Source: Candidatus Eiseniibacteriota bacterium (lineage in GTDB: Bacteria; Eisenbacteria; RBG-16-71-46; CAZAMP01). From it: DNA of 64,000 nucleotides. The stretch is from contig OZ245046.1 of the NCBI GenBank assembly GCA_965224245.1, forward strand, positions 4,896,001 through 4,960,000, read 5' to 3'. The translations under genes were made by a program, and so were the position numbers. Of the stretch, positions 5,229 through 22,333 are shown piece after piece; positions within the stretch are counted from its first letter, which is position 1; each line of letters begins with the position of its first letter. The notes beneath the pieces are model-generated. The model did no database searches and had not been told where the DNA came from. It was given only the letters and a program-made list of their open reading frames with translations.

Positions 5229-6167
5229 TCACGGTACGCGACGAACGAGTGTTGCCGACCATGACGTATCGGTGGGGAACGTGGCTGTGACCCACAGCTC
5301 CTCATCGTCACCGAAGTCTGTCTTGAACCGCCACGGCCGCGTCCCCTCCAGAAACCGCATCTCGCCCGAGGGCAGCGCGAGCAGCCAGAGCTGCCAGGGT
5401 CCGTTCTGTGGGAGTGCCAGATGCACCGAGGACGTCAGTCCGGACGGACGGCGCAGCTCGATCCTCTGCTCGCGACCGGGCCAGGACACATACTCGTCTC
5501 GAACCGGAACGAAGCGTCCGCCTCGGCTCACGATACCGTCGATGAACGCCCGGCTCGCCGCCGCCCTCGGATCGGATGGGGTCGCGTCGGGCGACCCGGA
5601 ACCGCGCATGGCGCCCGCGTCGAACTGCGAGCCGAACATCCGCTCAGCGGTGTTCCAATCGGATACCGGTCGCCACTGAAACGCCGGGGGAATCAAGACC
5701 AGCAGCGCCGTGGCGGAAGCCAGTGCGATCACGACCGCACCGGGCCGCCACCACGCCTTCAATCTCGACTGCCAACGCTCAGCGGGTCCGGACGACGACT
5801 CCGACACGGACGCGGCCACGAGCGTGGGCGGGGTTCCCCTCCTGGACGGCGACGCCGCCATCGCGGCTGCGAGGAGGGACTCGTCCTCACCGATGGACAT
5901 CACGTCCGGCGGCACGATGATCGAAGCGCGCAGCCGACTGTGAGCAGGGTCACTCGACTGCTCAATGGCGGCCATGAGGTCGAGCATGTCTCGCCGGAAC
6001 ACGACCGATTGGGCCAACGCTCGTTCCACCTGAGCTCGTTCGACGTCGGACGCCGTTCCGTTGACGTAGGCCACGATCGCCGGAACGTCGGGCGGCGAGA
6101 CGTTCTCGTCTTCGAGGTGCCTCACGAGTTCGTCCAGGAGCTGGTCGATCGCGTCATCGTCACGCAC
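5229..6167 (-). CDS. putative single-pass membrane anti-sigma factor
   Basis: Overlaps the stop of the upstream ECF sigma; N-terminal ASD-like 'IVAYVNGTASDVERAQVERAL' without Zn ligands; TM 'VVIALASATALLVLI'; extracytoplasmic C-terminal domain. Confidence 0.65.
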   Translation of the reverse strand: MRDDDAIDQLLDELVRHLEDENVSPPDVPAIVAYVNGTASDVERAQVERALAQSVVFRRDMLDLMAAIEQSSDPAHSRLRASIIVPPDVMSIGEDESLLAAAMAASPSRRGTPPTLVAASVSESSSGPAERWQSRLKAWWRPGAVVIALASATALLVLIPPAFQWRPVSDWNTAERMFGSQFDAGAMRGSGSPDATPSDPRAAASRAFIDGIVSRGGRFVPVRDEYVSWPGREQRIELRRPSGLTSSVHLALPQNGPWQLWLLALPSGEMRFLEGTRPWRFKTDFGDDEELWVTATFPTDTSWSATLVRRVP

Positions 6168-6786
6168 GGTGCGGCCGCCTCCCGATCGTGGAAAGCTCCG
6201 CCGCGAGGTCGATGCCGAGCTTCTCGAGTTCCTGCCTCAGCTTCTGGCGGCATTGGCGAACGACATTGCCCGCGTCGTGATTGCTCAACCCCAGCAGTGC
6301 GGAGAAGTCTCGGTTGTTCCATCCCTCGCCACGGGCTCGCAGGACGAACTGGCAGCGCGGATCGAGCTGGCGGATTGCCTCGGTGGTCAGCTCCAGCAGA
6401 CGCCGCCAGCCCACGCCGGCATCGACGGATGGGTCGGAGGATGCCGTTTGCTCGTAGTCGGCTTCCTCCGGCTCGGGTCGTTGTGCACGCAGCACGTCGA
6501 TGGCGCATCGACGGGCGACCACGAGGAACCACGTCCGGAACCGGTACCCACGAGGCTCGTATGCAAGTAATCGGCGACAGCTCTGGGCGACCATGGAGTC
6601 CAGCACCTCGACCACGAGATCGTGGCGCCGCTCGCCGGCGTTCGCGAACACCGGAAGGCTCGTGCACATGAGCTCCCGGTACGCCTCCTCGAGGAACATG
6701 TGTCGCCCCCGCACAGGATCCTCGCGCAACATCGCGATGCAGTCGGGCAGCGTCTGGTCGAAGCCGCCGGACCCGGTGTCGTCCAC
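6160..6786 (-). CDS. ECF-type sigma-70 factor
   Basis: 'RRLLAYEPRGYRFRTWFLVVARRCAIDVLR' (region 2) and 'AIRQLDPRCQFVLRARGEGWNNRDFSALLG' (region 4). Confidence 0.85.
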   Translation of the reverse strand: MDDTGSGGFDQTLPDCIAMLREDPVRGRHMFLEEAYRELMCTSLPVFANAGERRHDLVVEVLDSMVAQSCRRLLAYEPRGYRFRTWFLVVARRCAIDVLRAQRPEPEEADYEQTASSDPSVDAGVGWRRLLELTTEAIRQLDPRCQFVLRARGEGWNNRDFSALLGLSNHDAGNVVRQCRQKLRQELEKLGIDLAAELSTIGRRPHRA

Positions 6787-6999: not shown

Positions 7000-8676
7000 T
7001 TACGGCGTCACCTCCCGCGACATCGTGCTCTCCTGGTCGACGGGGACGGCGTCGGTGACCGGGGCGGCGTCGATTGCCGGCTGGATGCCACCCGCCCGGG
7101 CAATGCTCGCCTCGAGCCTGCGCGCCTCGTCGTCGTCGAGGATGCGCACTTCCGCCACCGGTTCCCCCGATCCTCCCCGCGCCGAGGTCCAGCGCACACA
7201 GACATAGACCGATCGCGCCACTGTCGTGTCGTTGGGGTGCGAGATGGACGCGCTATCGTAGAGCTTCACCTGCGCACAGTACTCGCCGGTCCGGTCGGTG
7301 AAGCAGCTGTAGCTGATCCACGCCCAGAAGTCGAAGGTCGTGCGGTCACTGGCCGGACACGAGTCGTCGAAGATGCTGCCGATGTAGCCCCAGCGATTCA
7401 AGGAACACGGCGTCCGGACGTAGTAGTACGATCCTCCGCTCGGACGAAACCACCACACAGCTTGCGCCTTGCACTGATTCCGATAGCCCCACATGTCGAG
7501 CTTGCCGCGAACGTAGAGGCGCTGGTTCGGATTGTCCGGCTCGGCGCGCACGTTGTAGAAGCGGGCCTTCTTGCGGAAACCGGTGTCGGACGCACTCCGC
7601 GAGCTCTGGTCGCAAGACCATTCCGCGCGCACGCTGTACGAGTAGGTCCGAGACGTGGACGAGCTGCGATCGTCGTAGGACGTCCCGGTCGTCGTGGCCA
7701 GGCGCGAGCCGTCGCGATAGATTGCGTAGCGCGCCGGCCGGGGCGACACCGAGCTCCAGGTGACGCGCACGTACGACGAGTACGTCCCGTTGCTGGCTCG
7801 CACGTTGGTCGGTGTCGGAGGCGAGTACGAGATGTCCGCCGAGCGCACCTGGATCGTCTTCGTCTGGTACCGGTCGACCGTCACGGTCTTGGACCTCGAC
7901 ATCAATCCACAGCCGGGATCTCGAACCGTCCACCGGTGAGTGCCCGGAGTCACCTCGATACGCGGGTTTCCGGACAGCCGCCCGATCGAACGATCGTCGA
8001 CGAACACGTCGTACGTTCCACTTCCGGAGAAGGACAGCTGCGTCGGCGGGCACACCACCCAGTCGATCGAGAGCCCTCCGGCGCCGACCCGCACGGTGTC
8101 GGTCGCCGCCAACCCGATCGTTCGCGTGAAGCTCTGGCTGACGCAACCGTCGTCGTTTCGGAAGCGAAAGCGCTGCTCTCCGACGTCGACGATCTCGCAG
8201 CGGCTCGAGCCCACGGAGATGCTACCGACCCAGTGGCCGTTCAGCTCGAGCTCCAGGTCCTCGGAGAGCCCGCTGAGCGTGAAGCAGAGCCGGGAGTCCG
8301 GACATGACGCCCAGTCGGGCGGCGAGTCCGCGTCGAACTCGACGGTCACCGTCTTCCCCGACTCCGCCACGACCGACTGCGACTTCGATACGCACTGGGT
8401 CCGGGCATTGACGACGTGAACGTCGTGAGGTCCCGGCTCGACGTCGACATCCAAATCCGACTCGTGATCGATGACGCCGACGCGCACCGTATCGACGTAC
8501 ACGCCGAGCGGGTCCGCGTAGTCGCCGAGAGCGAACGACAGCATCGCAGGCTCGGTCGGCGGCGGGGGGTCGGTCACGCCAGTCGTGTCATCCGGCCCGC
8601 AGCCGGCGAGCACCGCCACCGCCAGCGCCGCGCAAGCGAACCACGAGGCGCGCATGCCGAAGTATCGCAGGAACAT
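7000..8676 (-). CDS. lipoprotein with PEGA-like repeats and a fibronectin type III domain
   Basis: AAGGAGG RBS; lipobox 'LAGC'; three beta-rich repeats; FN3-like 'PTPTNVRAS...VRVTWSSV...YAIYRDG...YSYSVRA'. Confidence 0.7.
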   Translation of the reverse strand: MFLRYFGMRASWFACAALAVAVLAGCGPDDTTGVTDPPPPTEPAMLSFALGDYADPLGVYVDTVRVGVIDHESDLDVDVEPGPHDVHVVNARTQCVSKSQSVVAESGKTVTVEFDADSPPDWASCPDSRLCFTLSGLSEDLELELNGHWVGSISVGSSRCEIVDVGEQRFRFRNDDGCVSQSFTRTIGLAATDTVRVGAGGLSIDWVVCPPTQLSFSGSGTYDVFVDDRSIGRLSGNPRIEVTPGTHRWTVRDPGCGLMSRSKTVTVDRYQTKTIQVRSADISYSPPTPTNVRASNGTYSSYVRVTWSSVSPRPARYAIYRDGSRLATTTGTSYDDRSSSTSRTYSYSVRAEWSCDQSSRSASDTGFRKKARFYNVRAEPDNPNQRLYVRGKLDMWGYRNQCKAQAVWWFRPSGGSYYYVRTPCSLNRWGYIGSIFDDSCPASDRTTFDFWAWISYSCFTDRTGEYCAQVKLYDSASISHPNDTTVARSVYVCVRWTSARGGSGEPVAEVRILDDDEARRLEASIARAGGIQPAIDAAPVTDAVPVDQESTMSREVTP

Positions 8677-8710: not shown

Positions 8711-9403
8711 TCACGGCGTCAGGCTCGTACCGATCCGAATCCCCATCCACCAGGCGTCCATGGGCACACCGCGGTGCTCGACCTCGCCCGAGTAGCGCAA
8801 CGTCTGCTCGTGACCGGAGATGGCGACCCGACTCACCTGCAGCTCGAGCACGCCGGGATGCAACCGCCAGCCGCAGGCCAGCGTCGTGAGAAGCCCCGGT
8901 TCGATGGATGACGTTGCGGATGCCACGTCGGGGTGCCCGTCGAAGCGCAGGCGGTTCGACACCCAGCCGATTCCGAGCCCCAGCTCGACGTAGATCGTTC
9001 CGCCCACGGGTCGCGGCATCGTCGACCGGACCACGGCGCCGATCCCGGTCACCGTCCACCGCCCGGTGACCTCGATGTCGTCCACGGTCCCGGCATCCAG
9101 GCCCAATCGCTCGTGGGTCACGAACGGGCCGATCTCGTAGTGCGCCGTGCGATCCAGGGACCACGTCGCACAGGCCTCCAGCGACAGTCCGGTGCTCGCT
9201 CCGGCGCCGGGACGTTCCGAGAAGCTGCCCGTCGGCATCGCGAATCCCACGAGGCCGTCCACGCGCGCTCCTCCGGCGAAGGAGGGCATCGCCACCAGCA
9301 GGCAAGCCAGGGCGGCCAGCGCACATCCTCGCGTGACGCACGTGAGCGTTCGTCGGCCACCCGTCTCACCTCGCCACCCAGCTCGCGATCGGACATTCGA
9401 CAT
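8711..9403 (-). CDS. putative outer-membrane beta-barrel protein
   Basis: GGGAGG RBS, signal peptide ending 'PSFA', alternating amphipathic beta strands, 'GLVGFAMPTGSF' opening strand. Confidence 0.6.
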   Translation of the reverse strand: MSNVRSRAGWRGETGGRRTLTCVTRGCALAALACLLVAMPSFAGGARVDGLVGFAMPTGSFSERPGAGASTGLSLEACATWSLDRTAHYEIGPFVTHERLGLDAGTVDDIEVTGRWTVTGIGAVVRSTMPRPVGGTIYVELGLGIGWVSNRLRFDGHPDVASATSSIEPGLLTTLACGWRLHPGVLELQVSRVAISGHEQTLRYSGEVEHRGVPMDAWWMGIRIGTSLTP

Positions 9404-9566: not shown

Positions 9567-10787
9567 ATGCAATCAGAACTGGTACGGAACCCGATCCCGC
9601 ACCTGAGGCTCACGCGTGAGTTCCTGCTCGACCAGATCAGCTACGCCGAGTGGCACGGTCGGGTGGGCTCCCGACCCGGGCTACTGCCACCGGTGGGTGC
9701 CGAGCCGAGCTTGCAGCTCGACATGGAGCCCGCCGACGTCATGTGGCTCCGGAGACTCACGGCCATCGGCGAGCTCGGACAGCCCCTCCTGGTCGGTGAC
9801 GGGGGTCGGGACGTGTCGCCACTGGACACGACCCGTCTCGGCGTGGGGCGGCATCGTGTGTTCGCCGCACTCGAGCGAACCAGGGAGCCGTGTGGTGACG
9901 TCGTGGAGTGTCTGCCGGCCGATGGCGCCCGACGTGCGGTGTCCGGACATGCTCACTTGAAGCCCAGGGTGTCGCTGGTCGTCGGCGACGATCGTTTCCA
10001 GCACCGCGACTGGCTGGAGATCGCACACGTGGAACGAGCACGTGATCGCGGCGCGATGCGAACCTTCCTCGACGGCTCGTTTCACCCGGCGATTCGGGAC
10101 ATGTCGGCGTACACGAAGCCCAACCCGCTGGTGACGCTGGCCCGACTCGGACTGGACGCGTGCGGTGACATCGAGAGCGAGATCGCGAGGGTCGTACTCC
10201 GGTCCGAGCTCGTCGTGCTTCAGAACGTGGCGACCCACGGATGCCCGCAGCTTGCCGTGATCCAAGCACAGCGGTGTCTGGCGTTGCTGAGCGAGCTCGG
10301 CGGCGCTGCGGTTCCGGTACATGCCGGTGCGGAGCGTGTGCGATACGCGCCCGACACCGTGTGTCGATTCCTCTCCACGGTCGCCGGAGATCTCGCCGAT
10401 GGCGGCGATGGCCCGGTCTATCCCGACATCATCCGGGTGGACGAGACGAGCTACCAGCGTCTCGATGGTGAGCTCGAGGAGGACGGTCGCTACTGGACGT
10501 GGCAGGCTCGCCGACCCGGTGGGCTCTGGGCCAACGGCCTGGTGATCTACCTCCCGCGCTCGTCACCCGACGCGCTACCCATCGTGCAGTTCGGTCAGCA
10601 CAAGGCCGAGCCGCACTCGTTCAGGCGGGCCAGAACCTCCCACGCCAACGGTCGACCAGGGGCCACGCTTCGGCTGGATCCGATCACGGAGAGGTTGGGC
10701 GCGATCTACCTCGTGACTGACGCGGCTCAACACGAGCTCGAGCTGCGCGCTCAGCTCGGGGACGGACATGCGATCTACTACTTTTGA
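9567..10787 (+). CDS. tssK: TssK-like T6SS baseplate protein
   Basis: 'NPIPHLRLTREFLLDQ...PGLLP...LRRLTAIGELGQPLLV...LEIAHVER...LDGSFHPAIRDMS' follows the TssK pattern (W-x-x-G-M..H-F, YGL, C-x-A-I-T-x-x-G, D-x-x-F-I-P-P); first gene of the T6SS-like operon. Confidence 0.55.
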   Translation: MQSELVRNPIPHLRLTREFLLDQISYAEWHGRVGSRPGLLPPVGAEPSLQLDMEPADVMWLRRLTAIGELGQPLLVGDGGRDVSPLDTTRLGVGRHRVFAALERTREPCGDVVECLPADGARRAVSGHAHLKPRVSLVVGDDRFQHRDWLEIAHVERARDRGAMRTFLDGSFHPAIRDMSAYTKPNPLVTLARLGLDACGDIESEIARVVLRSELVVLQNVATHGCPQLAVIQAQRCLALLSELGGAAVPVHAGAERVRYAPDTVCRFLSTVAGDLADGGDGPVYPDIIRVDETSYQRLDGELEEDGRYWTWQARRPGGLWANGLVIYLPRSSPDALPIVQFGQHKAEPHSFRRARTSHANGRPGATLRLDPITERLGAIYLVTDAAQHELELRAQLGDGHAIYYF

Positions 10788-11736
10788 CGACGCGGCGATG
10801 CCGCGCGGGACACCGCTCGGCATGGTCGACCCCACGCTGGCCGCCGGCACGGCGGAGGGACTTCGCGTGCTCAACGAGCTACTCCTTCGAGTAGCACGGC
10901 CGCGCACGTACACCGCCGAGCGGTCGGCACTCGAGGCCATCAGGGCCATCCGTGATGATCGAGTGAGCATCGCCGCGGACACCGACGCCGCCTTCGACGA
11001 GCTTAGGCGCAACGTCCAGTACGTACGCGCCCAGGATGTCGAGGGACTCGCGGAGTGGCTCCAGCTTTCGAGTCGGTCCCTGGTGCCGAGCACCGAGGCC
11101 CGAAAGCGACGCCATGCACTCCTGATCGCCCTTACGGCGAAGGTCGTCGCCACGACGAGCGGATACGACGTCCCGGCCGCGATCGATGGCTCCGCGCTCT
11201 ATCCATGGAGTGAGGGGCTCGCGCCCCTTCTGACCTGGATGCCCACGAGGCCACTGACGCGTACGTACGGCGAGTTGGCCGGCCGCTATCTCGAGGTCAC
11301 GCAGGAGATCGTGTTCGACGTGCACCTGCATCCCATCGACGCGACGACCCCCGAGGAGTTCGACGGATGGCCGTGGTGGAAGCGCCTCGTCCAGCTGCGC
11401 GGCTGGAGAGCTCGCCACCGGCGCGAGGGGCCCGACAACCCGACCCTGGATGCGGGGCGGCTCGAGTTCCGCCTGGCCAGAAACGGGAGCTTCCGTCGGC
11501 TCGAACGTGACGGGGGCCTCGTCGCCCGCCGTTGGCTCACCACGCTCGGGTACCGCGACGTCGTTCGGCGGACCCGCCCGGGGCTTGCCTGGGTCCTCGG
11601 AGCGTTGGTAGCGGTGATCTCGACGACTGCATTGCTGCTCGTCCTTCACCATCGCATGGACACCATTGCGGGACGCGACCGGGCGCTGGCGGACCACGCA
11701 GCTCGGATCGCCCGCGAGCTGGGGAGTGGACGATGA
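10768..11736 (+). CDS. helical protein with C-terminal TM anchor (TssL/DotU-like topology)
   Basis: Helical N-terminal region; single TM 'LAWVLGALVAVISTTALLLVL' near the C-terminus; lies between the tssK-like and tssM-like genes. Confidence 0.5.
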   Translation: MRSTTFDDAAMPRGTPLGMVDPTLAAGTAEGLRVLNELLLRVARPRTYTAERSALEAIRAIRDDRVSIAADTDAAFDELRRNVQYVRAQDVEGLAEWLQLSSRSLVPSTEARKRRHALLIALTAKVVATTSGYDVPAAIDGSALYPWSEGLAPLLTWMPTRPLTRTYGELAGRYLEVTQEIVFDVHLHPIDATTPEEFDGWPWWKRLVQLRGWRARHRREGPDNPTLDAGRLEFRLARNGSFRRLERDGGLVARRWLTTLGYRDVVRRTRPGLAWVLGALVAVISTTALLLVLHHRMDTIAGRDRALADHAARIARELGSGR

Positions 11737-13826
11737 CGAGGATGACGGCCACCCGCATCTCGAAACGACTGCGGCGTTTGTCGAGCCTCTTCGGGCGGAC
11801 GAAACGTGTGGTGCTGATCGGACGTGACGTGAGGGACGCTCGAGGAGTCCTCGACGCCTGGCTCAACACCTGTGAAGGCGGGGGGGCGCTGCGGACGGTC
11901 ACACCCCCGACGGGAGATTCCGCGCGCGGAGATCGGGTTGCTCACGAGATCGTCGTGCTCTCGACGGAGCGTCCCGGGCGCTCGTGCCGCTGGGGCGTCG
12001 ATGTCCCCGATCTCGCGACGATCGACCGGGACGAGACCTGGCCCACCCAGGCAAACGCCGCCGTGATCTGCTGGCCCCACGCGGCATTGACCGAGCCGGC
12101 GGAGCGCGTGGCCGAGGCGGTGTTTCGGCTCAGCGGTGCCGTCGGCGAAGGAAGAGCGCGGGGCAAACTCCGGCGTGTCGCGTTCGTGATCACCGGCATT
12201 CCGGCGGACATCGGGCCACGACATCCGTCGCAGGCGCGCCTGGATCTTCCACCGAAGCGACGCCTCGACGACGCCATTCGTGTACAGGCCCGCGAGGGCG
12301 CCGGCGTCCCCGGGCATCCACTCGCGGATGATCGCTGGAGCACCTACCTGCGCTCGAGCGTGGCCGGCAACGCGTCGGTCCGGAAGCTGCATGAGAACGT
12401 GCGCCTGGCATGCGGCGGCGCCTGCCCCATCTTCTTCCTGGCCACCGAGCCCAGCGGCACAGCCGTCACGCGTATTCTGCGATGGCTGAACGGCGACCCG
12501 GAGCCGCGCCGCCAGCGGGTGCGCCCGTTGCTGGCCGCTGGCGTCGCCGCCTCGCTGCTGGCCGCTCTGGTCACATTGATCGTGGTCGTACCGCCCGGTA
12601 CCCAGGCGCGCGTCGCGCCGTCGACGACGTCCGTGGAGAAGATGGCCGGGCTGGCGGACGCGCTGGATGAGCGGCTGTCGGCACACGAGCGATGGTCGGT
12701 GCGCACCGCCGCAATGCTGTCGAGATCGGCCCTCGAGACCGAGCCTCTGCGCGCGGCACGGGATGCCATCCGCGATGCCCGAGCCCGCATCGCCGACGTG
12801 GACGCATTCGTATCCTGGCGGTCGCGCCTGTCTCGGACCCGGGCAGCTCTGGTCGACAGCGTCTCGTCGCGCGGGGTGATCGCGCCCTCCACTTCCGACG
12901 CGGCCCGGGTGGCCGCGGAGTCGGCACTCGACTCGCTCCGGAACTGGTCCGATCGGCCCTGGATCACCCGATGGCGCCACGCCGATCTCACGGAGGCCAG
13001 GCAGCAGGCAGGCGAGATCGCGGTGTGGTGGGCGTTGACGTCGCTGGACGTCGACCTCCGCCCCAGTGGGAGGCTCGTGGCCGATCTCGGGCGGCAAGCA
13101 GCGATCTCGTCCGAGCTGACGCGACTCTCGTTCACCGAGGAGGCGCAGTGGATTCACCTCCGGCTCGACACCCCGCTTCACTTTCTCGCGGACTACGCCA
13201 TCCGTCTGCGTGACGACATCAACCCCTACGCGGGCGTCTTCCGCCGCTTCGTGCCGTTCCTGTCCGAGCCGGACGTCCGGTCGGAGGTCGCGGCCCTGAG
13301 GGAGCTTTCGGTGGCGGAGGTCCTCGCCGCGCGAGACCTGCTCCGAGAGCGCGTTGACGAGCTCGTGACGCTGGTCGAGATGTGGGAACGCGTATCCAAC
13401 ACCTCCCGTGCCGACCTGAAGTCGGACCTGAGCACGCTCGCCACCGGACTCGATGAGATCGACGACGCGGTGTACATGGAGATCGCGCTGAACGTGGCAG
13501 GCGATACGCACTGGCACGTCGACTACGCAACATCTTCGAGTGGCCCCTGGCGCGCATCCACTCTGGACGGCGACGGTGGTGCCACGATCGTGGCGGCGAC
13601 TGCCCGGCCTGACGCAACGCTCTACCTCCGGTTCAACTGGCGGTCTCGGACCCACGCCGTCGAAAGCCGCCGGGCAGGCAGCGCATGCACGGGTGGATCG
13701 AGGATTGAGCTCCCGCTCTGGCAAGGTCACGGCGTGATCCAGACGCGCACGAGGAACGTGCACTGGAACGTGCGGGACGGCCGTCCGACGTGGCCGCCCT
13801 CGAAAGTGGATGGAGGTGCGGAATGA
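11733..13826 (+). CDS. membrane protein with degenerate P-loop/GTPase-like N-domain, TM and large periplasmic domain (TssM-like architecture)
   Basis: ATGA overlap with previous gene; 'KRVVLIGRDVRDARG', 'WGVDVPD', 'RRVAFVITG', 'PIFFLA' strand order; TM 'LLAAGVAASLLAALVTLIVVV'; long helical region, then a beta-rich C-terminus. Confidence 0.5.
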   Translation: MTRMTATRISKRLRRLSSLFGRTKRVVLIGRDVRDARGVLDAWLNTCEGGGALRTVTPPTGDSARGDRVAHEIVVLSTERPGRSCRWGVDVPDLATIDRDETWPTQANAAVICWPHAALTEPAERVAEAVFRLSGAVGEGRARGKLRRVAFVITGIPADIGPRHPSQARLDLPPKRRLDDAIRVQAREGAGVPGHPLADDRWSTYLRSSVAGNASVRKLHENVRLACGGACPIFFLATEPSGTAVTRILRWLNGDPEPRRQRVRPLLAAGVAASLLAALVTLIVVVPPGTQARVAPSTTSVEKMAGLADALDERLSAHERWSVRTAAMLSRSALETEPLRAARDAIRDARARIADVDAFVSWRSRLSRTRAALVDSVSSRGVIAPSTSDAARVAAESALDSLRNWSDRPWITRWRHADLTEARQQAGEIAVWWALTSLDVDLRPSGRLVADLGRQAAISSELTRLSFTEEAQWIHLRLDTPLHFLADYAIRLRDDINPYAGVFRRFVPFLSEPDVRSEVAALRELSVAEVLAARDLLRERVDELVTLVEMWERVSNTSRADLKSDLSTLATGLDEIDDAVYMEIALNVAGDTHWHVDYATSSSGPWRASTLDGDGGATIVAATARPDATLYLRFNWRSRTHAVESRRAGSACTGGSRIELPLWQGHGVIQTRTRNVHWNVRDGRPTWPPSKVDGGAE

Positions 13827-14404
13827 CGCGGACCGCTTCTGGGCTGGGTGCGACGCTAATCCTCCTGACGACGCTCGTCGGTACGGGCGAAGGGGTCGAC
13901 GCGGCGGGCGCGTTCCTCGAGGCCGAGTGTCGGGTCGTCACCGGCGGTGACTCGACCGAGGTCGTCCTCGAGGTCGTGAACGTGCGCAACCTGGCGACCG
14001 GTCCATCGGACTGGACCGCGTCGCTCTCGATCGACTGTTCCGTGGAGGAGTCGCGCCTTCCCTGGCGAACCGAGCTGGGGAGCGGCTGGCGTGCGGTCGC
14101 GGCCTGGACGGTCACCAGTCCGAGCCGAGGCTTCCTCTTTCTCGGGGGCCGGGGCGGACGCGCCACGCTCACGCTGCCATCGGCCGGCTGGTCGATCCGG
14201 TGCCACTGCGCGGGCAAGAGCGACGAACCCCGCGTTCGAGTGTTCGGCGTCCTGATCGGGCCGGACGGCGAACCGGTCCCGTCTCTGAGCTACGTCGGCG
14301 AGCAGGAGTCGTTCTTCGCGCGTCTCCTTCCCTTCGGGTCCGGGCACCCCGCCGAGCTGCCGTCGTCGGTTCGGCTGCGCCTGGCCTGGGAGCCGTTCGA
14401 GTGA
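13823..14404 (+). CDS. exported beta-rich protein (possible TssJ analogue)
   Basis: ATGA overlap; GGAGG RBS; N-terminal hydrophobic signal; beta-sandwich-like composition; no lipobox. Confidence 0.5.
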   Translation: MTRTASGLGATLILLTTLVGTGEGVDAAGAFLEAECRVVTGGDSTEVVLEVVNVRNLATGPSDWTASLSIDCSVEESRLPWRTELGSGWRAVAAWTVTSPSRGFLFLGGRGGRATLTLPSAGWSIRCHCAGKSDEPRVRVFGVLIGPDGEPVPSLSYVGEQESFFARLLPFGSGHPAELPSSVRLRLAWEPFE

Positions 14405-14562
14405 TCGGCGCGCTCCGTCGGTTGACCGCAAGATGCGTGTCCACATTGCAACGCCGACCCGACACACATCTCGAGGAAGATCCAATCCCATCTCCGAAAT
14501 CGCCGCTCGAGGCCCGTTCATCTGGTGAGACCACGAGCCTTCGCATGATGAGGAGGATCCCC

Positions 14563-15087
14563 ATGGCGGACGACAAAGGTCTGAAAGCGCACATCGTGTA
14601 CCCCGATCCCGAGAAGGCGCTCTCGGCCCCGGTGTTGCCGGAGGTCGCGATCGCCTTCGACGCTTCTCTTCAGCCCAGGCGCCGATCACTCGCGGCGCTC
14701 AAGGCTGCTCACCCGACCGACCTCACGGCCAACAGCGTCGACGAGGTCTGCTCCGGGCTCGGTCTGGTGATCCGGGGCACGGTCGAAGATGAGACGGGCG
14801 CGAAGAAACAGGTCGTCATCCCGGTCGCGAACGAAAACACGTTCACGCCGGGCGGGCTGACCGCCCGCTGCGAGCCTCTCTTCGACCTGTACACCGCGCA
14901 TCGAACGGCCGATCAAATCGCGACGCTGTCGGAGGAAGTCGAGCTCGACCAGGCGCTCTCAGCGATCGAGACGCTGGATGCATTCGAGCGAGCACTCGCC
15001 GCCGTGGACGCGCCGAGTAACGATGACGTCCCTGACCCGGCGAGCGACGACGAGACCTCGCCCAACGAGCAACCCGGAGGAATGTGA
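14563..15087 (+). CDS. tssB: T6SS contractile sheath small subunit TssB-like
   Basis: AGGAGG RBS; 'SVDEVCSGLGLVIRGTVEDETGAKKQVVIPVANENTFTPGGLTARCEPLFDL' parallels the TssB core; directly precedes tssC. Confidence 0.7.
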   Translation: MADDKGLKAHIVYPDPEKALSAPVLPEVAIAFDASLQPRRRSLAALKAAHPTDLTANSVDEVCSGLGLVIRGTVEDETGAKKQVVIPVANENTFTPGGLTARCEPLFDLYTAHRTADQIATLSEEVELDQALSAIETLDAFERALAAVDAPSNDDVPDPASDDETSPNEQPGGM

Positions 15088-16442
15088 TGATGAGCGCAGT
15101 GGCCACACGCCTCGACCACGAGATGCTGGAGCGTCTGCGTGGGATTCATGCCGTCATGCCCGGGCTCCAGCCCGATCCAGTCACCGGAGGCGACCTCGAG
15201 TGTCCCGGCATCGACGTCACCGAGAGCGACATCGACCTCCGGGACCTGCTCAACCGTCGCGGAGAAGCGGCACGGCAAAGCAGGCGTCTCCTGCGGGCAC
15301 ACATCCGGGCGTTCATCGCGATCACGCGTCGCGCCGAGGCGAACGGCCAGACCCTGAAACAAGCCGCGTCCGAGCACGCGGACGCATCGGCCCAGGCGCT
15401 GGAACGATCCTGGGTATCGCTCCTCACTGCGAACCGCGAGCTGGAGACCCGGGTGCGAAGCGTGGCGTTGATGTTTGCCAACCTCGCATCATCCCGGGCC
15501 GCGCTCACCGATCGCATCCACTTTCTGGACGTCAGCCACGAGGAGCTGAACACGCCCGCCGGCCAGGACTTCGTCCGCGACTACCTGAGCCACTTCGTGG
15601 ATCGCCCGGATCCCCGGGAGGCCCGCGGATACTTCTGGGCTCCCGGCTGGCTAGGAGATGCCGATGGCGTCAACGCGCTCGGTCGAGTCGTGCACGAGCA
15701 TCGTGCGCTCTTCGTGTCGGACGCGCCGCCGTACGAGTCGGAGGTCGCGCTGAAGAAGGCCGCCAGGCCCGGACGTCTCCTGGACTCGCTGAAGGGAGAG
15801 GACGTTCACCATCGGCACATGATCCTGATCGGCAACCCGACCCGTGCCCGCGGCGCGTTTCGCGGACGCACGGCATCAGAGGCCGACGACGTTCGGGTTC
15901 CGGGCAGCTCGGCCTGGTTCGGCATGCAGCTCGACACGATCGTGCGCGGTACGCCGTGGATTCCGGTCGCCGGCTACCTGAACCCGCTGGCCGGCGTGGA
16001 CGACGTCGCGGTCGATCTCCGGCTGGAAGACGTGGCCGGGTTCCGTCTGTATGCGAGCCATCGCATCAATCCCGTCATCCTGAGGGGCGCCGGCTCGAAC
16101 ATCGCGGTCGTCTGGGGCGCCTACACCCTCGGCGGGCAGCAGGTCGGCGAGGCGGTGGCCGAGCTCGAGGTGGTCCGTTTTGCGGAGTGGGTCATGAACC
16201 AGCACGGACTCCTGGTCGAGCTCGACAAGGGCGCCAGGGAGGTTCGCCGCCAGCTCGCCCACTTCGTCACGTTGAACCGCGGCGCGGGAAAGATGTTCAG
16301 AGCGAAGAGCCGAGTCGACGTGCGGGTCGAGGGAAAGACGATCGTCGTCGACTTCGATCTCCACTACCGAGTGGTCACCGAACACGCGGTCATTCGGATG
16401 AACAAGTCGTCAGACGAGACCGCGCTCGAAATCACGGACTGA
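15087..16442 (+). CDS. tssC: T6SS contractile sheath large subunit TssC-like (Bacteroidota DUF5458 type)
   Basis: 'LETRVRSVALMFAN', 'DRPDPREARGYFWAPGWLG', 'MILIGN', 'EADDVRVPGSSAWFG', 'INPVI...VVWGAYTL' are collinear with T6SSiii TssC motifs. Confidence 0.8.
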   Translation: MMSAVATRLDHEMLERLRGIHAVMPGLQPDPVTGGDLECPGIDVTESDIDLRDLLNRRGEAARQSRRLLRAHIRAFIAITRRAEANGQTLKQAASEHADASAQALERSWVSLLTANRELETRVRSVALMFANLASSRAALTDRIHFLDVSHEELNTPAGQDFVRDYLSHFVDRPDPREARGYFWAPGWLGDADGVNALGRVVHEHRALFVSDAPPYESEVALKKAARPGRLLDSLKGEDVHHRHMILIGNPTRARGAFRGRTASEADDVRVPGSSAWFGMQLDTIVRGTPWIPVAGYLNPLAGVDDVAVDLRLEDVAGFRLYASHRINPVILRGAGSNIAVVWGAYTLGGQQVGEAVAELEVVRFAEWVMNQHGLLVELDKGAREVRRQLAHFVTLNRGAGKMFRAKSRVDVRVEGKTIVVDFDLHYRVVTEHAVIRMNKSSDETALEITD

Positions 16443-16461
16443 TCGTCGACGGGAGGATGAC

Positions 16462-16896
16462 GTGCCTAACTACAGGATCCGCGCAGAGCTGAAGCCGCGA
16501 AGTGGCGAAGCGATCGAGCTCGACCACATCCTGAGCCTATCGTGGAGGGCCTGGCGTAGCCCGGGCCCCAACAACAACCTCGGGCAGGTGGGGCACCAGG
16601 TCGACGAGATCGTGCTGACCCGGCACAAGTCGCTGCCCAATGGCGAGCAGCCGGCGGAGGACAGGACGGTCGCGGCTGCCGCGGCACGCGAGCAAGACGC
16701 CTTCCACTCCGGCGAGATCACGGTGGCACGCCCGGAGGATCCGACGAACCCGGTACAGACGATCCGCTTCGACGAGGGTCACGTGACGTCGATCCAGCAA
16801 GAGATCAACGGCAGCCGGTTCGTGGAGACGCTCAACATCGCCGTGAAGTCACTCCAGGTCGACGACAACATCTTCGAGCCGGAACCGGCGGAGTGA
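16462..16896 (+). CDS. hcp: T6SS tube protein Hcp/TssD-like
   Basis: 144 aa, follows the sheath genes; GGAGG RBS; 'SGEITVARPEDPTNPVQTIRFDEGHVTSIQQEI...ETLNIAVKSLQV' is a typical Hcp/TssD C-terminal half. Confidence 0.75.
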   Translation: MPNYRIRAELKPRSGEAIELDHILSLSWRAWRSPGPNNNLGQVGHQVDEIVLTRHKSLPNGEQPAEDRTVAAAAAREQDAFHSGEITVARPEDPTNPVQTIRFDEGHVTSIQQEINGSRFVETLNIAVKSLQVDDNIFEPEPAE

Positions 16897-18362
16897 GTGT
16901 CACCGGTGCAGTGGCCCCCGGCGCGGACTGTCGGTTTCGGGTACTCGTGGACGACGATCGGCTCGACGGCATCGGCGACGTGACCATCGTCGAGGATCTC
17001 CGGGGCGGGGTGGATGCCAGGTTCGATCTGTGGCTCGACCCGGCGACTCGCATCCGGCCTGGCCAGCGCGTGACGGTTCGGGTGGAGCGGGTGGGCAGGA
17101 TCAACCACGACACCGAGATCCACACGTGGTGCCGTACCACGTCGACCTTTCGGGTCTCGGGCGAGCGGGCAACGTGCCGTACGCACGCCACCGATCCCCT
17201 CCGCGTGCATCCGCCGCAGCCGGAGTTCCGGAGTCATGCCGGCGGTGTCGGGTTGCTGCAGCTCGCGCGCGCGGTGGCGCGTCTGCCGAAAGGCGTGCGC
17301 GCGTCCGCCCAAGACGTACCGGTGCGCGCGGCCTGGCTTCTGCAAGCCGACGAATCCGCGGTCGAGTTCATGCACCGGGTAGCGGCCGCGATCGACCACG
17401 TCGTGTTCTGGAGTCGAGACGAGCTGACCGCGGCGATGATCGGTGACGACCGCGAGGACCACGAGCTCGGCGACTTCGGCGAGGACGACGTTCTGCGAGC
17501 GACCTACGTGGAGTCGGTGGGCCTGCATGGGACCAACACGACGTGGATCCATCCGGAGACGCGATCGGTGCAGCAACGTCGTCAGGACCCGCACCGCTCG
17601 GGCGGTACGATCGCAACGCGTCGAAGCGCGTGGCGCGCCGGCGGCGCGGTCATGCCGGCACCGGCCGATGGTCTGTGGATGGCGACGACATTGTCGACAC
17701 ATCGGCCGGACGTCCGCCTCGGGTCGCGGCTCGAGATGGAGAACGGTCCCTGGATTGTCCACCGCGTCGAGCATCACCTCACGGCTCGCGGCACCTACGA
17801 GAACGTGATCCACGCCGTGCGCGCGGTGGACTGGGGACGTCCCGCGTACGCGCTGACGCCGTTGGTGATCGGCCCGCTGCACGCGACGGTGGTCGACAAC
17901 GAGGATCCGGCTGCTCTGGGACGGATCCGTGTCGTCCTGCTCGAGGATCCTGACCGGCGTCCGACACCGTGGGTGCCTTACGGATTTGCCTACGCGGGTC
18001 CAGCACATGGGATTCACTACGTTCCCGAGAAGGGCGACCTGGTCCTCGTGGATGCCGAGCCCGGCTCGCCCGAGCGTCTCTACGCTCGAGGCAGCATCCG
18101 AAGCGCTCGGTCGCCGGTGCCCGACGATTGGCAGGTCCGTGGTAACGCGATCAAGACCTGGGTGACCCGGGGCGGCAGCGGTGTCGTCATCGACGACGGG
18201 AGCCGCACCCTCCGGGCGACCGCGGGCGCCATGCTGAGTGTGAACGCCGACGACCTGGTCGCCGAAGCGACGACTCTCCGACTCCACGCTGCCGGGAGTC
18301 TGGCGCTCGACGGTGACGAGCACGTCGCGATTCGGTCTCGCCGTCGCATCGATCTGGGGTGA
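16893..18362 (+). CDS. vgrG: VgrG/TssI spike protein
   Basis: 'WLLQADESAVEFMHRVA' (gpD-like); 'ATVVDNEDPAALGRIRV...PWV...YAGPAHGIHYVPEKGDLVLV...PERLYARGSI' (gp5 OB-fold); short beta-helix tail. Confidence 0.85.
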   Translation: MSVTGAVAPGADCRFRVLVDDDRLDGIGDVTIVEDLRGGVDARFDLWLDPATRIRPGQRVTVRVERVGRINHDTEIHTWCRTTSTFRVSGERATCRTHATDPLRVHPPQPEFRSHAGGVGLLQLARAVARLPKGVRASAQDVPVRAAWLLQADESAVEFMHRVAAAIDHVVFWSRDELTAAMIGDDREDHELGDFGEDDVLRATYVESVGLHGTNTTWIHPETRSVQQRRQDPHRSGGTIATRRSAWRAGGAVMPAPADGLWMATTLSTHRPDVRLGSRLEMENGPWIVHRVEHHLTARGTYENVIHAVRAVDWGRPAYALTPLVIGPLHATVVDNEDPAALGRIRVVLLEDPDRRPTPWVPYGFAYAGPAHGIHYVPEKGDLVLVDAEPGSPERLYARGSIRSARSPVPDDWQVRGNAIKTWVTRGGSGVVIDDGSRTLRATAGAMLSVNADDLVAEATTLRLHAAGSLALDGDEHVAIRSRRRIDLG

Positions 18363-19936
18363 ACATGTTCGAGCTGGAGGCATTGACTCGCACCATGCTG
18401 GATGCGATCGACGATGTCGGCGCCGCCCTCGTGGAACGGACGCGCACCGCGTGCGCGAACGCGCTGCTGGCGGTGTCGGATCCAGGGCTTGCACTACCGT
18501 CTCCACCGGTCGCGCTGATGGAGTTCGACACGGACGAGACGGCAACCCTCGACCGACGGGCCTTGCTGCGGTCAGAGCTGGCACTCAAGGCGTCAGGCGA
18601 GATCCTGGTGACTCCGGTGTGCGGGGACATCGTGGTTCATCCGTGGCGCATCGAGAGCGCCGAGTGGATCATGGACGACCCACGCGACACCGGTGAGGAC
18701 GATCCCAGGGTGGCGAGGGGCGTCGTGTGTCGGCTTCGGAGATCCCCGGCGTCGACTTGCACGCCGGGTCCCCTGACCGTGCACGTGGGAGTGGACCCGG
18801 CGGTGGTTGGAAGCCTCAGACGGAGCATCGCGACGGCGCGCGCGATCGACGACTCGGACACCCAGCGACTGCTCGTCGTGGACCGAAAGCCGGAGACGTA
18901 TCTTGCCACACGGGTCCCCGTCGGTCCCACGACGACCGATCAGCAGGTCGCGGCACAGGAGGAGACGCTCGTCAGCGTGTATGTGACGCGCGAACTCTGC
19001 GAGCGCGAGTCATGGACGCTCGAGCTCCGCTTCGCGCGGCGAGCACTGGCCGTGTCGTCGACGCCGTCCGTGACGGCAAACGTGCACTCGGTCTGGAACT
19101 CCCTGTGGACGCGGTATCCAGAGCGCGCGTCGGTGCAGCAGACCGTGTCCGAGAACCGGAATCGCTGGGTACATGCGCTCGGGTCCCGAGACGTGGGATC
19201 GAGCTGGCGTGCGTGGAGCGTCGTTCGCGTCGGGACCTCACGGCGCCTCCATTCCGCCACGTCCTGGTTCGCGTCGACGGGCCGTTCGCCGGCGACCGAC
19301 ACACCGGCGCTCCTGCTGGCGTACGTCGGTGAACAGACGTCGCATCCCGAGCGACAAGTGCGCGCGACGTCTCCTACCCCCGTTCTGTCGATCGTGGTCG
19401 ACGCGACCACGCGGCGACACCTGGACGATGCCCGCACGAAACTGACGGCGGAGTACTGGATCACGACGGGTGCCGACGGCAATGGCGTTCCGGCTGGCAC
19501 CGCATTTCACGTCGACTCACCCCTGTCGGCTCGTCTTCAGGGACGGCTCGTCACGTCGATGTGGGGTGGCACCGACGGCGCGATGGGCCATGTGGTCGAC
19601 TTCTCGGGAGACGAGCAGCCATCGGTGTTCGTGGCTCCACGTGGCTTGCTCACGGTGACTGACGCGATGAACATCATCGCGCGTGCCTCGGGAGGGATGC
19701 TGGACGTGGTCGATCCGCGGGACTTCCTTCGCTGGGGGGCAGCGTCGCCGATCGAGCCGCTCGTCGTGCGCGTGCGGTTCCGCGACCGCGTCCCCGGCCA
19801 TCAGGGCGGAATCGTGCTGGCAGCGTGTCGCGGCGCACTCGAGCAGCGGATGGGCAGCGCGGTCGCGGCCGGACTCGTGCTCACTTGCGACGAGATGCGA
19901 GATGGGGTCGCAATGGATGTTTCCGATGACGCGTAG
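18359..19936 (+). CDS. tssF: TssF-like baseplate protein
   Basis: N-terminal 'LLAVSDPGLALPSPPVALMEF', 'VTANVHSVWN', and C-terminal 'EYWITTGADGNGVPAG...TSMWGGTD' match baseplate TssF/gp6-like motifs. Confidence 0.65.
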   Translation: MNMFELEALTRTMLDAIDDVGAALVERTRTACANALLAVSDPGLALPSPPVALMEFDTDETATLDRRALLRSELALKASGEILVTPVCGDIVVHPWRIESAEWIMDDPRDTGEDDPRVARGVVCRLRRSPASTCTPGPLTVHVGVDPAVVGSLRRSIATARAIDDSDTQRLLVVDRKPETYLATRVPVGPTTTDQQVAAQEETLVSVYVTRELCERESWTLELRFARRALAVSSTPSVTANVHSVWNSLWTRYPERASVQQTVSENRNRWVHALGSRDVGSSWRAWSVVRVGTSRRLHSATSWFASTGRSPATDTPALLLAYVGEQTSHPERQVRATSPTPVLSIVVDATTRRHLDDARTKLTAEYWITTGADGNGVPAGTAFHVDSPLSARLQGRLVTSMWGGTDGAMGHVVDFSGDEQPSVFVAPRGLLTVTDAMNIIARASGGMLDVVDPRDFLRWGAASPIEPLVVRVRFRDRVPGHQGGIVLAACRGALEQRMGSAVAAGLVLTCDEMRDGVAMDVSDDA

Positions 19937-20468
19937 CATGCTGCACGATGCCGACACCCCTCGTCGAGAGCTGGGCATCGACGTCGGTCGACAGATCACG
20001 GAACGGATCGGGGAGCGCCTCGGCGCCGACGAAGGAGCCCGTGACGACGTCCCGGGGCGGGTGTCGAAGCAGCTCGGTGACGCGCTCGCGCTCCTCGCCT
20101 CGCCTCCGGTTCGACAGCGTCTCGACGAGCTGGAAACGCTGCTGGCCGTCGTGCTCACGACACCGTGGCACGTCGCCGCGATCGAGATCGCCAAGCCTCT
20201 GCCGCACGTGATCACCCGCTTCACGCGATCGGCGCACCGCGGAGCGCGCATCTCGGTGGGGAGAGGACGGCGCGCGAGCCGAATCGGAGAATGTCGGGTC
20301 GCCGAAACGCCGATCACCGTGCACCTGCCACAGGTGAGTGAGGTCGGGCCGGATCAGCCGCGGGACTGGGTGCTCCGGGCGCCAGTCGGCACGGTCGTGC
20401 GGCCAGCCGAGGAGGCGCCGTTGGATGTCCGGGTCGGCGTCAGTTGCATCGAGGAGGATGCATCATGA
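19926..20468 (+). CDS. TssG-like baseplate protein (short)
   Basis: Overlaps the tssF stop and is coupled to the PAAR gene; position after tssF; weak resemblance to the TssG C-terminal part; start uncertain. Confidence 0.45.
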   Translation: MTRSMLHDADTPRRELGIDVGRQITERIGERLGADEGARDDVPGRVSKQLGDALALLASPPVRQRLDELETLLAVVLTTPWHVAAIEIAKPLPHVITRFTRSAHRGARISVGRGRRASRIGECRVAETPITVHLPQVSEVGPDQPRDWVLRAPVGTVVRPAEEAPLDVRVGVSCIEEDAS

Positions 20469-20791
20469 GAGGTATCGCCCGCCGGGGCGATCGCATCGAA
20501 GGGGGTGTTCACTGCCACGGTGGCCACTCGCACCCTCCGCCGGCGAGCCCGGGCCGGATCGTCGGGGGCGCGCGCAAGGTGTTCGTCAACGGTCGCCCGG
20601 CGGCTCGCGCCGGAGACAGTGGGTACTCGCCGCTCTGCTGCGCCGGCATCGGCCGCATCTCGATCCGAGAGGACCAGATGCTCGTGTGGATCGAGGGAAA
20701 GCCGGCGGCTGGCGTCGGAACACCCACCATGCACTGCGACGTCGCCCCGGGACGCATTGCCACCGGAAGCACCGAGGTCCGCATGCCGTAG
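20465..20791 (+). CDS. PAAR-domain spike tip protein
   Basis: 'IARRGD', 'VFVNGRPAARAGD', 'VWIEGKPAAGVG', 'GRIATGSTEVRM'; His/Cys metal ligands; GGAGG RBS. Confidence 0.9.
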   Translation: MRGIARRGDRIEGGVHCHGGHSHPPPASPGRIVGGARKVFVNGRPAARAGDSGYSPLCCAGIGRISIREDQMLVWIEGKPAAGVGTPTMHCDVAPGRIATGSTEVRMP

Positions 20792-20871
20792 CGCGGCGTC
20801 CGGCTACACGGTGTCCGAAAAGGGCACCTCCCGCGCGTTCACTTGATGGACGCCATCAAGGGAGGTGAGAG

Positions 20872-21639
20872 ATGACGACGCGAACGGGCGCGACCCGCTG
20901 GCCGGGCCGCCTCGGTGCACTGCTCGTACTGGTATGTGGGATACAGGCTTGCGAGAAGCCGACGGAGTCCGAGCCGGACGATCGACGTGAGTTCTCGATC
21001 CGCGCGACGCTGGGCGCCGACACGCCCGTGCGGGGCGCAACGGTGCGAATCCCGCTCGGGACTCGCTCGCTCAGTGAGCGAACCGGTGACGACGGACGCT
21101 GCACGTTCTATTTCGAAAGGGATGAGGATCTTCCACCGCGCCTCGTCGCCACGATCGAGCACGCGTCGATCATGCCCGATGCGGTCGCGTTCGACACGTC
21201 CGGCGACGGGGACGCCCTCCGTCGCACGTGCGTTCGACGACCGTCGACGACGTACGTCGAGGACGTGACGCTTCACCACCTCGGGAACGATCGGTACGGT
21301 GGCGACCCCAACTCGCAGCTCCAGATTCCGTCTCAGGGGATCTCGCAGACGTACCGCTTCCACCTCGACACGTATCCGTCACGGATGCCGACGATCCGGC
21401 TCTATGCGCGAGGCATCCAGCATCCGACACGGATTCAGCTCAACGGACAGACGGTGTCGCGGCTCGGGGACAGCGACCCGTCGGGCGGGCTGAGCAGGTA
21501 CAACTTCCGGCTCGGGGGCGCTCCGCGTTCGGTGCTCCGTCCCGGCATGAACACGCTGACCGTTCACACCGCCCCGTACAACGAGAGCGATCCGTGGGAC
21601 GACATCGAGTTCTGCGCGCTGATGCTGTACTTCGAGTAG
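20872..21639 (+). CDS. lipoprotein of unknown function
   Basis: GGAGGT RBS; lipobox 'IQAC'; carboxypeptidase-regulatory-like N-domain and beta-sandwich C-domain. Confidence 0.7.
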   Translation: MTTRTGATRWPGRLGALLVLVCGIQACEKPTESEPDDRREFSIRATLGADTPVRGATVRIPLGTRSLSERTGDDGRCTFYFERDEDLPPRLVATIEHASIMPDAVAFDTSGDGDALRRTCVRRPSTTYVEDVTLHHLGNDRYGGDPNSQLQIPSQGISQTYRFHLDTYPSRMPTIRLYARGIQHPTRIQLNGQTVSRLGDSDPSGGLSRYNFRLGGAPRSVLRPGMNTLTVHTAPYNESDPWDDIEFCALMLYFE

Positions 21640-21721: not shown

Positions 21722-22333
21722 CTAGCCGCGCGCGGCGGCGTACAGCGATCCAACCTTGTCCCAGTTCACGACGTTCCAGAACGCCGAGATGTAGTCCGGC
21801 CGGCGATTCTGGTAGTGGAGGTAGTACGCGTGCTCCCACACGTCGAGTCCGAGGATCGGCGTGTAGCCCTGCATGTACGGCGAGTCCTGGTTGGCGGTCG
21901 AGAACACCTCGAGCTTGCCGTTCTTCACCGCGAGCCAGGCCCAGCCGCTGCCGAATCGGGTGGCGCCGGTCTTCGAGAACGCGTCCTTGAAGGCGTCGAA
22001 GCCACCGAGCTCGGAGCCGATCGCCTTGCCGAGATCGCCCGACGGCGCGCCGCCGCCGCTCGGTCCCATGATCTGCCAGAAGAGTGAGTGGTTGGCGTGG
22101 CCACCGCCGTTGTTGATGACGGCCTGTCGAGCCGAATCCGGGATGTCGCCGATGCCACGCAGCACGTCCTCGATCGACTTCGACGGGAAGGCGGAGTGGC
22201 CCTCGAGCGCCTTGTTGAGGTTCGTGACGTAGGCGTTGTGGTGCTTGCCGTGATGGATCTCCATCGTGCGGGCGTCGATGTGCGGCTCCAGCGCGTCGTG
22301 CGCGTACGGGAGGTCGGGCAACGTGAAGGCCAT
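21722..22333 (-). CDS. sodA: superoxide dismutase [Mn]
   Basis: '[15 protein letters not shown]', '[10 protein letters not shown]', 'NNGGGHANH', 'FGSGWAWL', 'NQDSP', 'DVWEHAYY'. Confidence 0.97.

Follow-up and report, generated by a model that had tools for sequence, protein, structure and literature searches.

The subject of this analysis is a row of twelve genes at positions 9567-21639 of a 64,000-nucleotide stretch of Candidatus Eiseniibacteriota DNA (contig OZ245046.1), the whole of which is termed here the window. The twelve genes, designated g1 to g12, form one operon which probably encodes a contractile injection machine of the T6SS (type VI secretion system) kind anchored in the cell envelope, where a tail similar to that of T6SSiii is combined with a TssK-like protein (g1) docking to a pair of TssL-like and TssM-like membrane proteins (g2 and g3). 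The parts of this machine include a sheath protein of the T6SSiii family (g6), a VgrG spike (g8), a PAAR tip (g11), a membrane protein with a small-GTPase fold devoid of nucleotide-binding motifs (g3), and a tail-anchored membrane protein (g2).

The operon is real and its boundaries lie where the original prediction had placed them. It consists of twelve co-oriented plus-strand open reading frames (ORFs) between minus-strand genes; GC content at third codon positions is 0.78-0.82 in all 12 ORFs, which marks a coding frame in DNA of 67-70% GC, and all twelve reading frames are intact. Overlaps were found at 7 of the 11 junctions, six of them of 4 nt and one of 20 nt, and the non-overlapping junctions have gaps of 1, 19, 80, and 158 nt. 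Start codons were refined, and two genes (g5 and g11) proved to be preceded by GAGGAGG sites.

The operon proteins were searched against the Pfam (E up to 10), NCBIfam, and PHROGs family libraries, and an 11 x 11 hhalign matrix was computed between the window proteins and the families from T6SSiii-like loci. The large sheath subunit TssC of the T6SSiii type is the product of g6 (15084-16442, 452 aa), which matched PF17541 over residues 61-318 with E 4.3e-11 and 42.8 bits (cut-off 25) and the TssC family with 98.8% hhalign probability and E 4.8e-17; it is the only PF17541 match in the genome. This T6SSiii TssC model is the sole sheath family matched in the operon, in support of the earlier description of the tail as T6SSiii-like. 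The spike is equally clear, in agreement with the original prediction: g8 (16893-18362, 489 aa) is a short VgrG with the OB domain PF04717 (E 6.9e-13) and a match to TIGR01646 under the cut-off (E 1.1e-8), while g11 (20465-20791, 108 aa), with GAGGAGG before its ATG, is the PAAR spike tip (PF05488, E 1.3e-16). As a tblastn query g8 matches VgrG genes in 18 loci; a C-terminal effector domain was not seen in it.

In the hhalign matrix g1, g5, g6, g7, g8, and g9 each found their best match in the family expected from position, with probabilities of 99.4% for g8, 98.8% for g6, 33.8% for g7, 12.9% for g1, 3.7% for g5, and 1.4% for g9, the remaining cells reaching at most 0.9%. The g5 product (14563-15087, 174 aa) is the probable small sheath subunit TssB, since the TssB family was the best of its row (E 0.011), yet with a probability of only 3.7%; its ATG stands 5 nt downstream of a GAGGAGG site, and there is an overlap of 4 nt between its stop and the beginning of tssC. 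The probable Hcp/TssD tube protein g7 (16462-16896, 144 aa) matched PF17642 below the threshold (E 0.0078, 16.5 bits, cut-off 25.8) and by hhalign had its best match in the Hcp family of T6SSiii-like loci with E 4.3e-4. Directly 3' of vgrG lies g9 (18359-19936, 525 aa), tentatively a TssF-like baseplate wedge protein, for which the best of the row was TssF both in comparison with T6SSi (E 0.02, 107 colinear columns) and with the FCB type (E 0.036, also colinear); the positive controls for the T6SSi baseplate comparison, FCB TssF, TssG, and TssE, gave 97%, 98.1%, and 60.4%, respectively. The following gene, g10 (19938-20468, 176 aa), begins 1 nt beyond g9 and reaches with its stop codon into the start of the PAAR gene; it occupies the position of TssG at half the TssG length and has no family or profile match. 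TssE and TssG were both considered for g10 and rejected, as the profile comparisons gave no signal.

The libraries returned zero matches for g1-g5, g9, and g10, PHROGs in particular giving 0 families among g1-g10, and sequence searches of the PDB with g9, g10, and the g3 profile produced only chance-level matches (E at least 0.12). Hence the earlier statement that sheath, tube, and baseplate genes are recognisable holds for TssC, with its PF17541 match, and does not hold in the same sense for Hcp, which is sub-threshold, or for TssB, TssK, and TssF, which have no match in Pfam, NCBIfam, or PHROGs.

The tail is also isolated in sequence space. A single close relative of g6, designated P0002 and 42% identical, was found among 5.8 billion clusters, and the remaining relatives, with 20-28% identity, come from 39 loci in metagenomes, 1 in a genome, and 9 further genomes belonging to the phylum. 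When the 12 proteins were compared by tblastn with 57 fetched loci only TssC and VgrG matched, and in phmmer search, beyond TssC, VgrG, and the rows of the own genome, there were two matches, both PAAR proteins in T6SSiii-like loci. In a quick maximum-likelihood TssC tree g6 and P0002 form a long-branched pair (stem 3.03) which adjoins a clade of the same phylum (SH-aLRT 85) and lies outside the clade with the TssN-bearing locus L006. One of the records involved deserves a remark: the contig titled Candidatus Saccharimonadales (L004) matches the L059 contig (G085:C117) over the stretches similar to g6 and g8, with identical coordinates and identities, and the L059 genome is filed in the same class as the window genome, so the label or the binning of the Saccharimonadales record is doubtful.

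The first gene of the operon, g1 (9567-10787, 406 aa), is a probable TssK-like adaptor between baseplate and anchor, as indicated by position, hhalign, and ESM Atlas. In the Atlas feature look-up 29 of 30 matches were PF05936 (TssK) clusters, with a score of 0.91 and 195 of 256 features shared; in hhalign comparison the enlarged TssK family of T6SSiii-like loci was the best of 11 families (E 0.0022), and the first test against the K family had given E 0.019. The next gene, g2 (10768-11736, 322 aa), encodes a tail-anchored inner-membrane protein with one C-terminal transmembrane (TM) helix at residues 275-293, which is the TssL-like architecture that had been proposed for it.

The key member of the membrane module is g3 (11733-13826, 697 aa), a TssM-like membrane pseudo-GTPase. 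Its AF2 model, built on the alignment from a search of 1.84 billion representatives (pLDDT 78.5), together with hydropathy, divides it into a cytoplasmic GTPase-fold domain at about 22-257 (the alpha/beta part of the model spans 23-252), a TM helix at 268-286, a helical periplasmic stalk at about 300-577, and a beta domain at 580-682, so that the TssM-like architecture noticed originally is borne out. The cytoplasmic domain is predicted as a Ras/Rag-like alpha/beta domain with the small GTPase (TRAFAC) fold, and the Atlas pointed for g3 to a DO-GTPase cluster (0.79), while Pfam gave zero DO-GTPase matches for g3 itself. The full HMMER search of the 1.84 billion representatives yielded 21 g3-family proteins, including 17 full-length members besides g3 with 659-715 aa and 18-26% identity; one cluster member bears an Acidobacteriota class label. 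Walker A and [NT]KxD motifs are present in none of the 18 members, and in the profile alignment the loop lengths are retained with GK[ST] and TKxD substituted; judged by these alignments, the g3 family is one of pseudo-GTPases. A word-indexed homologue search with g3 returned the query alone, the g3 profile had zero matches in any fetched T6SS locus and, of the 206 genomes available for the phylum, matched this one only (1 of 206), and the 95 pattern hits in IMG/VR viral contigs included 0 confirmed members.

An exported protein and a probable lipoprotein may complete the envelope part of the operon. The g4 product (13823-14404, 193 aa), whose gene overlaps the g3 stop by 4 nt, has a signal-peptide-like N-terminus with no lipobox Cys and had zero matches in Pfam, NCBIfam, and PHROGs and in any family compared by profile. 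Its candidacy as a GAP1-N2-like partner was rejected, the comparison with the N4 family giving a probability of 0.6%. The last gene, g12 (20872-21639, 255 aa), encodes a probable lipoprotein with a hydrophobic N-terminal stretch followed by Cys residues, which is a candidate outer-membrane or immunity component and had zero matches in Pfam and in profile comparisons.

The position of g2 and g3 was considered by comparison with other T6SS loci of the same phylum. By scanning the fetched loci for proteins with a P-loop and a TM helix a membrane GTPase of about 800 aa with g3-like topology, designated GT, was found in T6SS loci of 12 of 206 genomes. In 11 of 11 loci fetched from these 12 genomes the same order is kept, namely, tssK, a gene for a tail-anchored protein of about 300 aa designated TA, and GT, with a fourth conserved gene after GT in 8 of 11; the loci also hold T6SSiii-like tssB, tssC, hcp, vgrG, tssF, and tssG together with ClpV. 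Examples are L053 14347-19952 (plus strand), L056 3-6226 (minus strand), and L075-L083. Pfam analysis of one such locus detected TssK (2.1e-5) and TssG (2.4e-9), one GT protein matched DO-GTPase2 (2.2e-10), DO-GTPase1 (3.3e-4), and, under the cut-off, IcmF-related_N (5.2e-4), and in one locus the gene 3' of GT matched GAP1-N2 with E 0.003. The GTPase motifs Walker A and [NT]KxD are present in 9 of 10 GT proteins. Two further details of related loci may be mentioned: in L052 (14184-15044, plus strand) TssE is a fusion of PDZ and gp25 domains (PDZ_6 3.9e-9, GPW_gp25 7.4e-6), and in L053 a formylglycine-generating-enzyme-like gene (1438-2574, minus strand; FGE-sulfatase 6e-39) ends the tail gene row.

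By hhalign the g3 family (A2) aligned with GT at E 5.6e-6 and 85.6% probability over 223 colinear columns, that is, the whole GTPase domain, and the C-terminal beta domains of both families aligned with E 0.011. The g2 protein matched the TA family with E 1.3e-4 and 54% probability over 78 columns, off-target families staying at or below 1.5%, and could be aligned over its entire length to 10 TA proteins, with which it has 14-27% identity and invariant residues in common. On the strength of these profile alignments g2 and g3 are considered to be remote homologues of the conserved tssK/TA/GTPase module. The module can in turn be compared with the TssK, TssL, and TssM families of T6SSi compiled from 28-30 loci within this phylum: GT matched the N-terminal part of TssM with E 5.1e-7 and 92.4% probability over 154 columns, the K family matched TssK with 97.9%, and TA matched TssL with E 0.0047 and 7.4% over 158 colinear columns, where the TA stretch "LE.RLA..GFF" stands opposite the DotU stretch "AGEEFF". 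As neither g2 nor g3 is matched directly by TssL or TssM, the link is transitive and runs through the TA and GT families. The g3-TssM relation is thus sustained by an intermediate, and g3 can be called TssM-like by a two-step chain of profile homology combined with its predicted fold and its topology. For g2 the TssL identity that had been suggested lacks a direct match, and only the weak chain from TA to TssL stands, so that g2 is at best weakly TssL/DotU-like. The AF2 model of g2 from the TA alignment was all-helical and unusable (pLDDT 55.5), and complex prediction of g3 (residues 1-300) with g2 gave a score of 0.00 and no answer.

As to synteny in related genomes, which had been named as a check on the operon, the order tssK, TA, GT accompanies tail genes in 11 of 11 loci, and the g3 family itself occurs in one genome of 206. 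The operon shares with these GTPase-anchored loci a T6SSiii-like TssC and the profile homology of g2 and g3, as well as the order and topology of three genes, in which a TssK-like protein, a tail-anchored protein, and a GTPase-fold/TM/periplasmic protein stand beside a T6SSiii-like tail. In contrast to them, it lacks intact GTPase motifs (G1/G4 motifs in 0 of 18 members of the g3 family versus 9 of 10 GT proteins), the gene after g3 encodes an exported protein instead of a GAP1-N2-like one, and ClpV and recognisable TssE and TssG are missing.

The closest described class for the tail is T6SSiii. In the passages of the Bongiovanni et al. study (2024, PMC10781749) it is composed of the TssB-K tail and baseplate and the TssNQOPR membrane complex, where TssN, encoded between tssK and tssG and nearly ubiquitous in T6SSiii, has 5 TM helices, TssQ, TssO, and TssP have an N-terminal TM helix, and TssR is a lipoprotein of about 790 aa; the same passages confine T6SSiii to Bacteroidota among complete genomes, with no homologues of the membrane complex elsewhere, and present its anchor as unrelated to TssJLM. 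The operon resembles T6SSiii in its PF17541 sheath, the tube weakly matching PF17642, VgrG, PAAR, and the missing TssA. It differs in the absence of TssN, ClpV, and gp25, in a TssC of 20-26% identity, in the topology of g2 (one C-terminal TM helix) and g3 (one TM helix in the middle of the protein) as opposed to the 5-TM TssN and N-terminal-TM TssQ/O/P, and in the host, which by gene content does not belong to Bacteroidota. Of the T6SSiii anchor proteins, TssN (PF17555) was found neither in the operon nor anywhere in the genome (97% complete) at E up to 0.1, while the same Pfam library applied as a control to the Bacteroidota-type locus L006 detected TssN with 9.1e-75, gp25, ClpV, and a weak TssF. 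For TssO, TssP, TssQ, and TssR there was no Pfam match in the operon, the existence of Pfam models for all four being unconfirmed, and g2, g3, g4, and g12 have topologies other than the ones given for these proteins.

With TssJLM-TssK of T6SSi the operon has in common the order of tssK, a tail-anchored protein, and an NTPase-fold/TM/periplasmic protein. Unlike the TssM of the genome's own T6SSi, with an open frame of 1128 aa, g3 has 697 aa, one TM helix, no Walker A, and no IcmF Pfam domains, and Pfam gave no match in the operon for the VipA/VipB sheath (PF05591, PF05943) or for IcmF-related and DotU domains. A TssJ lipoprotein was not identified in the operon either, no fold or profile comparison with TssJ having been made. 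The "GTPase-centric" conflict systems with DO-GTPase and GAP1 were characterized in Kaur et al. study (2020, PMC7159879), whose relevant passages mention neither T6SS nor IcmF; the GT family is DO-GTPase2-like, while g3 has no Pfam DO-GTPase match and no GAP1 partner. Four T6SS classes, each with particular taxa, are listed in the corresponding part of a 2026 review (PMC13584744), and the literature search, which did not extend to supplements, came upon no account of a T6SS with a GTPase or a pseudo-GTPase as anchor.

According to these data the machine may be pictured as follows. The g5 and g6 proteins would polymerise as a sheath around the g7 (Hcp) tube on a baseplate composed of TssF-like g9, g10, and TssK-like g1, and g1 would dock this baseplate on an inner-membrane complex of TssL-like g2 and TssM-like g3. 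The helical stalk and beta domain of g3 would reach toward the outer membrane, possibly together with exported g4 and lipoprotein g12, and contraction of the sheath would expel the tube with the spike. The GTPase domain of g3 is most likely a fixed scaffold and not a switch, because Walker A and NKxD are lost. As ClpV is not encoded in the operon, the sheath would either depend for its recycling on some other cellular Clp ATPase or would not be recycled.

Several observations weigh against this picture. Among the 12 ORFs gp25/TssE, TssG, ClpV, and TssA were not recognised by Pfam or profile comparisons, and no effector was identified in the operon. The E values behind the assignment of TssB, TssK, TssF, and Hcp range from 4e-4 to 0.036, and g1, g2, and g3 have no direct match to the T6SSi TssK, TssL, and TssM profiles (at most 1.2%, the best one covering the TM helix only). 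The g3 family is shown to be linked with T6SS genes in this genome only, where alone the context of a family member was seen, and the position of g6 in the TssC tree is unsure in view of the very long branches (stem 3.03). Finally, the gp25, TssG, and TssF of the genome (by Pfam) and its best ClpV match are found only in a separate T6SSi locus, and therefore the operon machine may be incomplete or dependent on T6SSi.

This second locus is a canonical T6SSi at C1:1551460-1579327, 3.3 Mb before the window, with TssL (4.1e-40), TssM (2.4e-70), TssF (1.5e-210), TssG (8.2e-99), gp25, and ClpV. All three VipB (PF05943) matches of the genome lie in it at 1.56-1.58 Mb, as do its only PF14331 match and one PF09850 match. 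T6SSi is common in the phylum, DotU being present in 53 and TssF in 56 of 206 genomes. It can be proposed from this that the operon is a satellite, either incomplete or in decay, which borrows ClpV, TssE, TssG, and perhaps more from the T6SSi or is non-functional. Such a satellite would explain why gp25, TssG, and ClpV are unrecognised in the operon next to a full-looking T6SSi elsewhere (C1:1.55-1.58 Mb) and why the GTPase motifs of g3 are lost; nevertheless it is unlikely. All twelve frames are intact and tightly coupled, and the motif loss is common to all 18 family members, with length and other invariant residues kept, which indicates an old, selected state. Moreover, the sheath is too distant from the VipB type for a direct match, making the sharing of baseplate parts unlikely, and a TssE or TssG may have gone unrecognised in g10.

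Still less probable is another contractile system, an extracellular or free cytoplasmic particle similar to a phage tail, in which g1-g4 would have an unrelated membrane function. The absence of ClpV, as in extracellular contractile injection systems (eCIS) and T6SSiv, the very divergent sheath, and the fact that most genes are unassignable agree with it. However, the sole sheath match is the T6SSiii TssC model, PHROGs recognised no family in g1-g10, and tape-measure-sized, terminator, and fibre genes were not seen among the 12 ORFs. Besides, g1 is TssK-like, and g2 and g3 find their match in the module placed after tssK in ClpV-bearing T6SS loci. For eCIS and tailocin features (tape measure, terminator or cap, fibres, Afp-type sheath) there was no PHROGs or Pfam match among the operon proteins scanned, four proteins remaining unassigned.

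The recent chimera of the original prediction, joining a Bacteroidota-type tail with a Proteobacteria-type tssJ-K-L-M block, is largely refuted and very improbable: the order of TssK, a TssL-like, a TssM-like, and an exported protein does resemble tssK-L-M of the T6SSi loci of the phylum, and the T6SSi of the genome is a possible donor, but direct similarity to TssK, TssL, and TssM of T6SSi was seen neither in g1 and g2 nor in the g3 family, zero T6SSi Pfam families were matched in the operon, and the same order beside T6SSiii-like tails in 11 of 11 other loci, from 12 of 206 genomes, points to an old lineage and not to a splice.

The GC content at third positions in the operon (0.78-0.82) is lower than in the neighbouring genes (0.84-0.92), and together with the presence of the g3 family in one genome of 206 and the Acidobacteriota class label of one family member this suggests horizontal acquisition; the operon was probably acquired in this way. 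The only sizeable gap, the 158 nt at 14405-14562, lies between the g1-g4 membrane module and the genes of the tail; a strong GAGGAGG site stands at its end, and an internal promoter is possible there. The sigma-70 scan found no promoter-like sites, this gap included, and the terminator scan gave 5 terminator-like sites versus 3.5 expected by chance.

On the upstream side the divergently transcribed neighbour (8711-9403, minus strand) encodes an outer-membrane-protein-like product of 230 aa with a faint beta-barrel match (PF13505, E 0.079), and on the other flank there is a gene for Fe/Mn superoxide dismutase (21722-22333, minus strand), whose homologues bear labels of various phyla and thus gave no taxonomic placement. 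Farther upstream, past the genes at 7000-8676 and 8711-9403, a cluster at 2002-6786 on the minus strand, 2.8 kb from the operon, comprises a fragment of an ECF-type (extracytoplasmic function) sigma factor, an unknown gene, and the gene for a TPR-CHAT protein of 1097 aa (CHAT 5.4e-58).

In summary, the combination of a T6SSiii-like tail with a reduced anchor of TssL/TssM-like type points to a mode of fixation in the envelope that is older and shared, and the operon can be considered as the most divergent, GTPase-dead and ClpV-less form of a GTPase-anchored class. A bolder proposal, which must be regarded as tentative and rather doubtful, is that it represents a self-sufficient minimal T6SS lineage of twelve genes outside classes i-iv, in which the TssM-type NTPase is a nucleotide-free scaffold and neither a dedicated ClpV nor a recognisable gp25-type initiator is employed. 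If this is true, the operon and the GTPase-anchored loci of its phylum would jointly mean that the TssL-TssM-type anchor is older than the split between T6SSi and T6SSiii and that Bacteroidota later swapped it for TssNQOPR. The pseudo-GTPase serves as a natural experiment for the question of whether TssM-type proteins have to bind nucleotides for the machine to fire, and the occurrence of active-GTPase loci in 12 of 206 genomes along with the dead-GTPase form described here makes the origin of the T6SS membrane complex directly testable.

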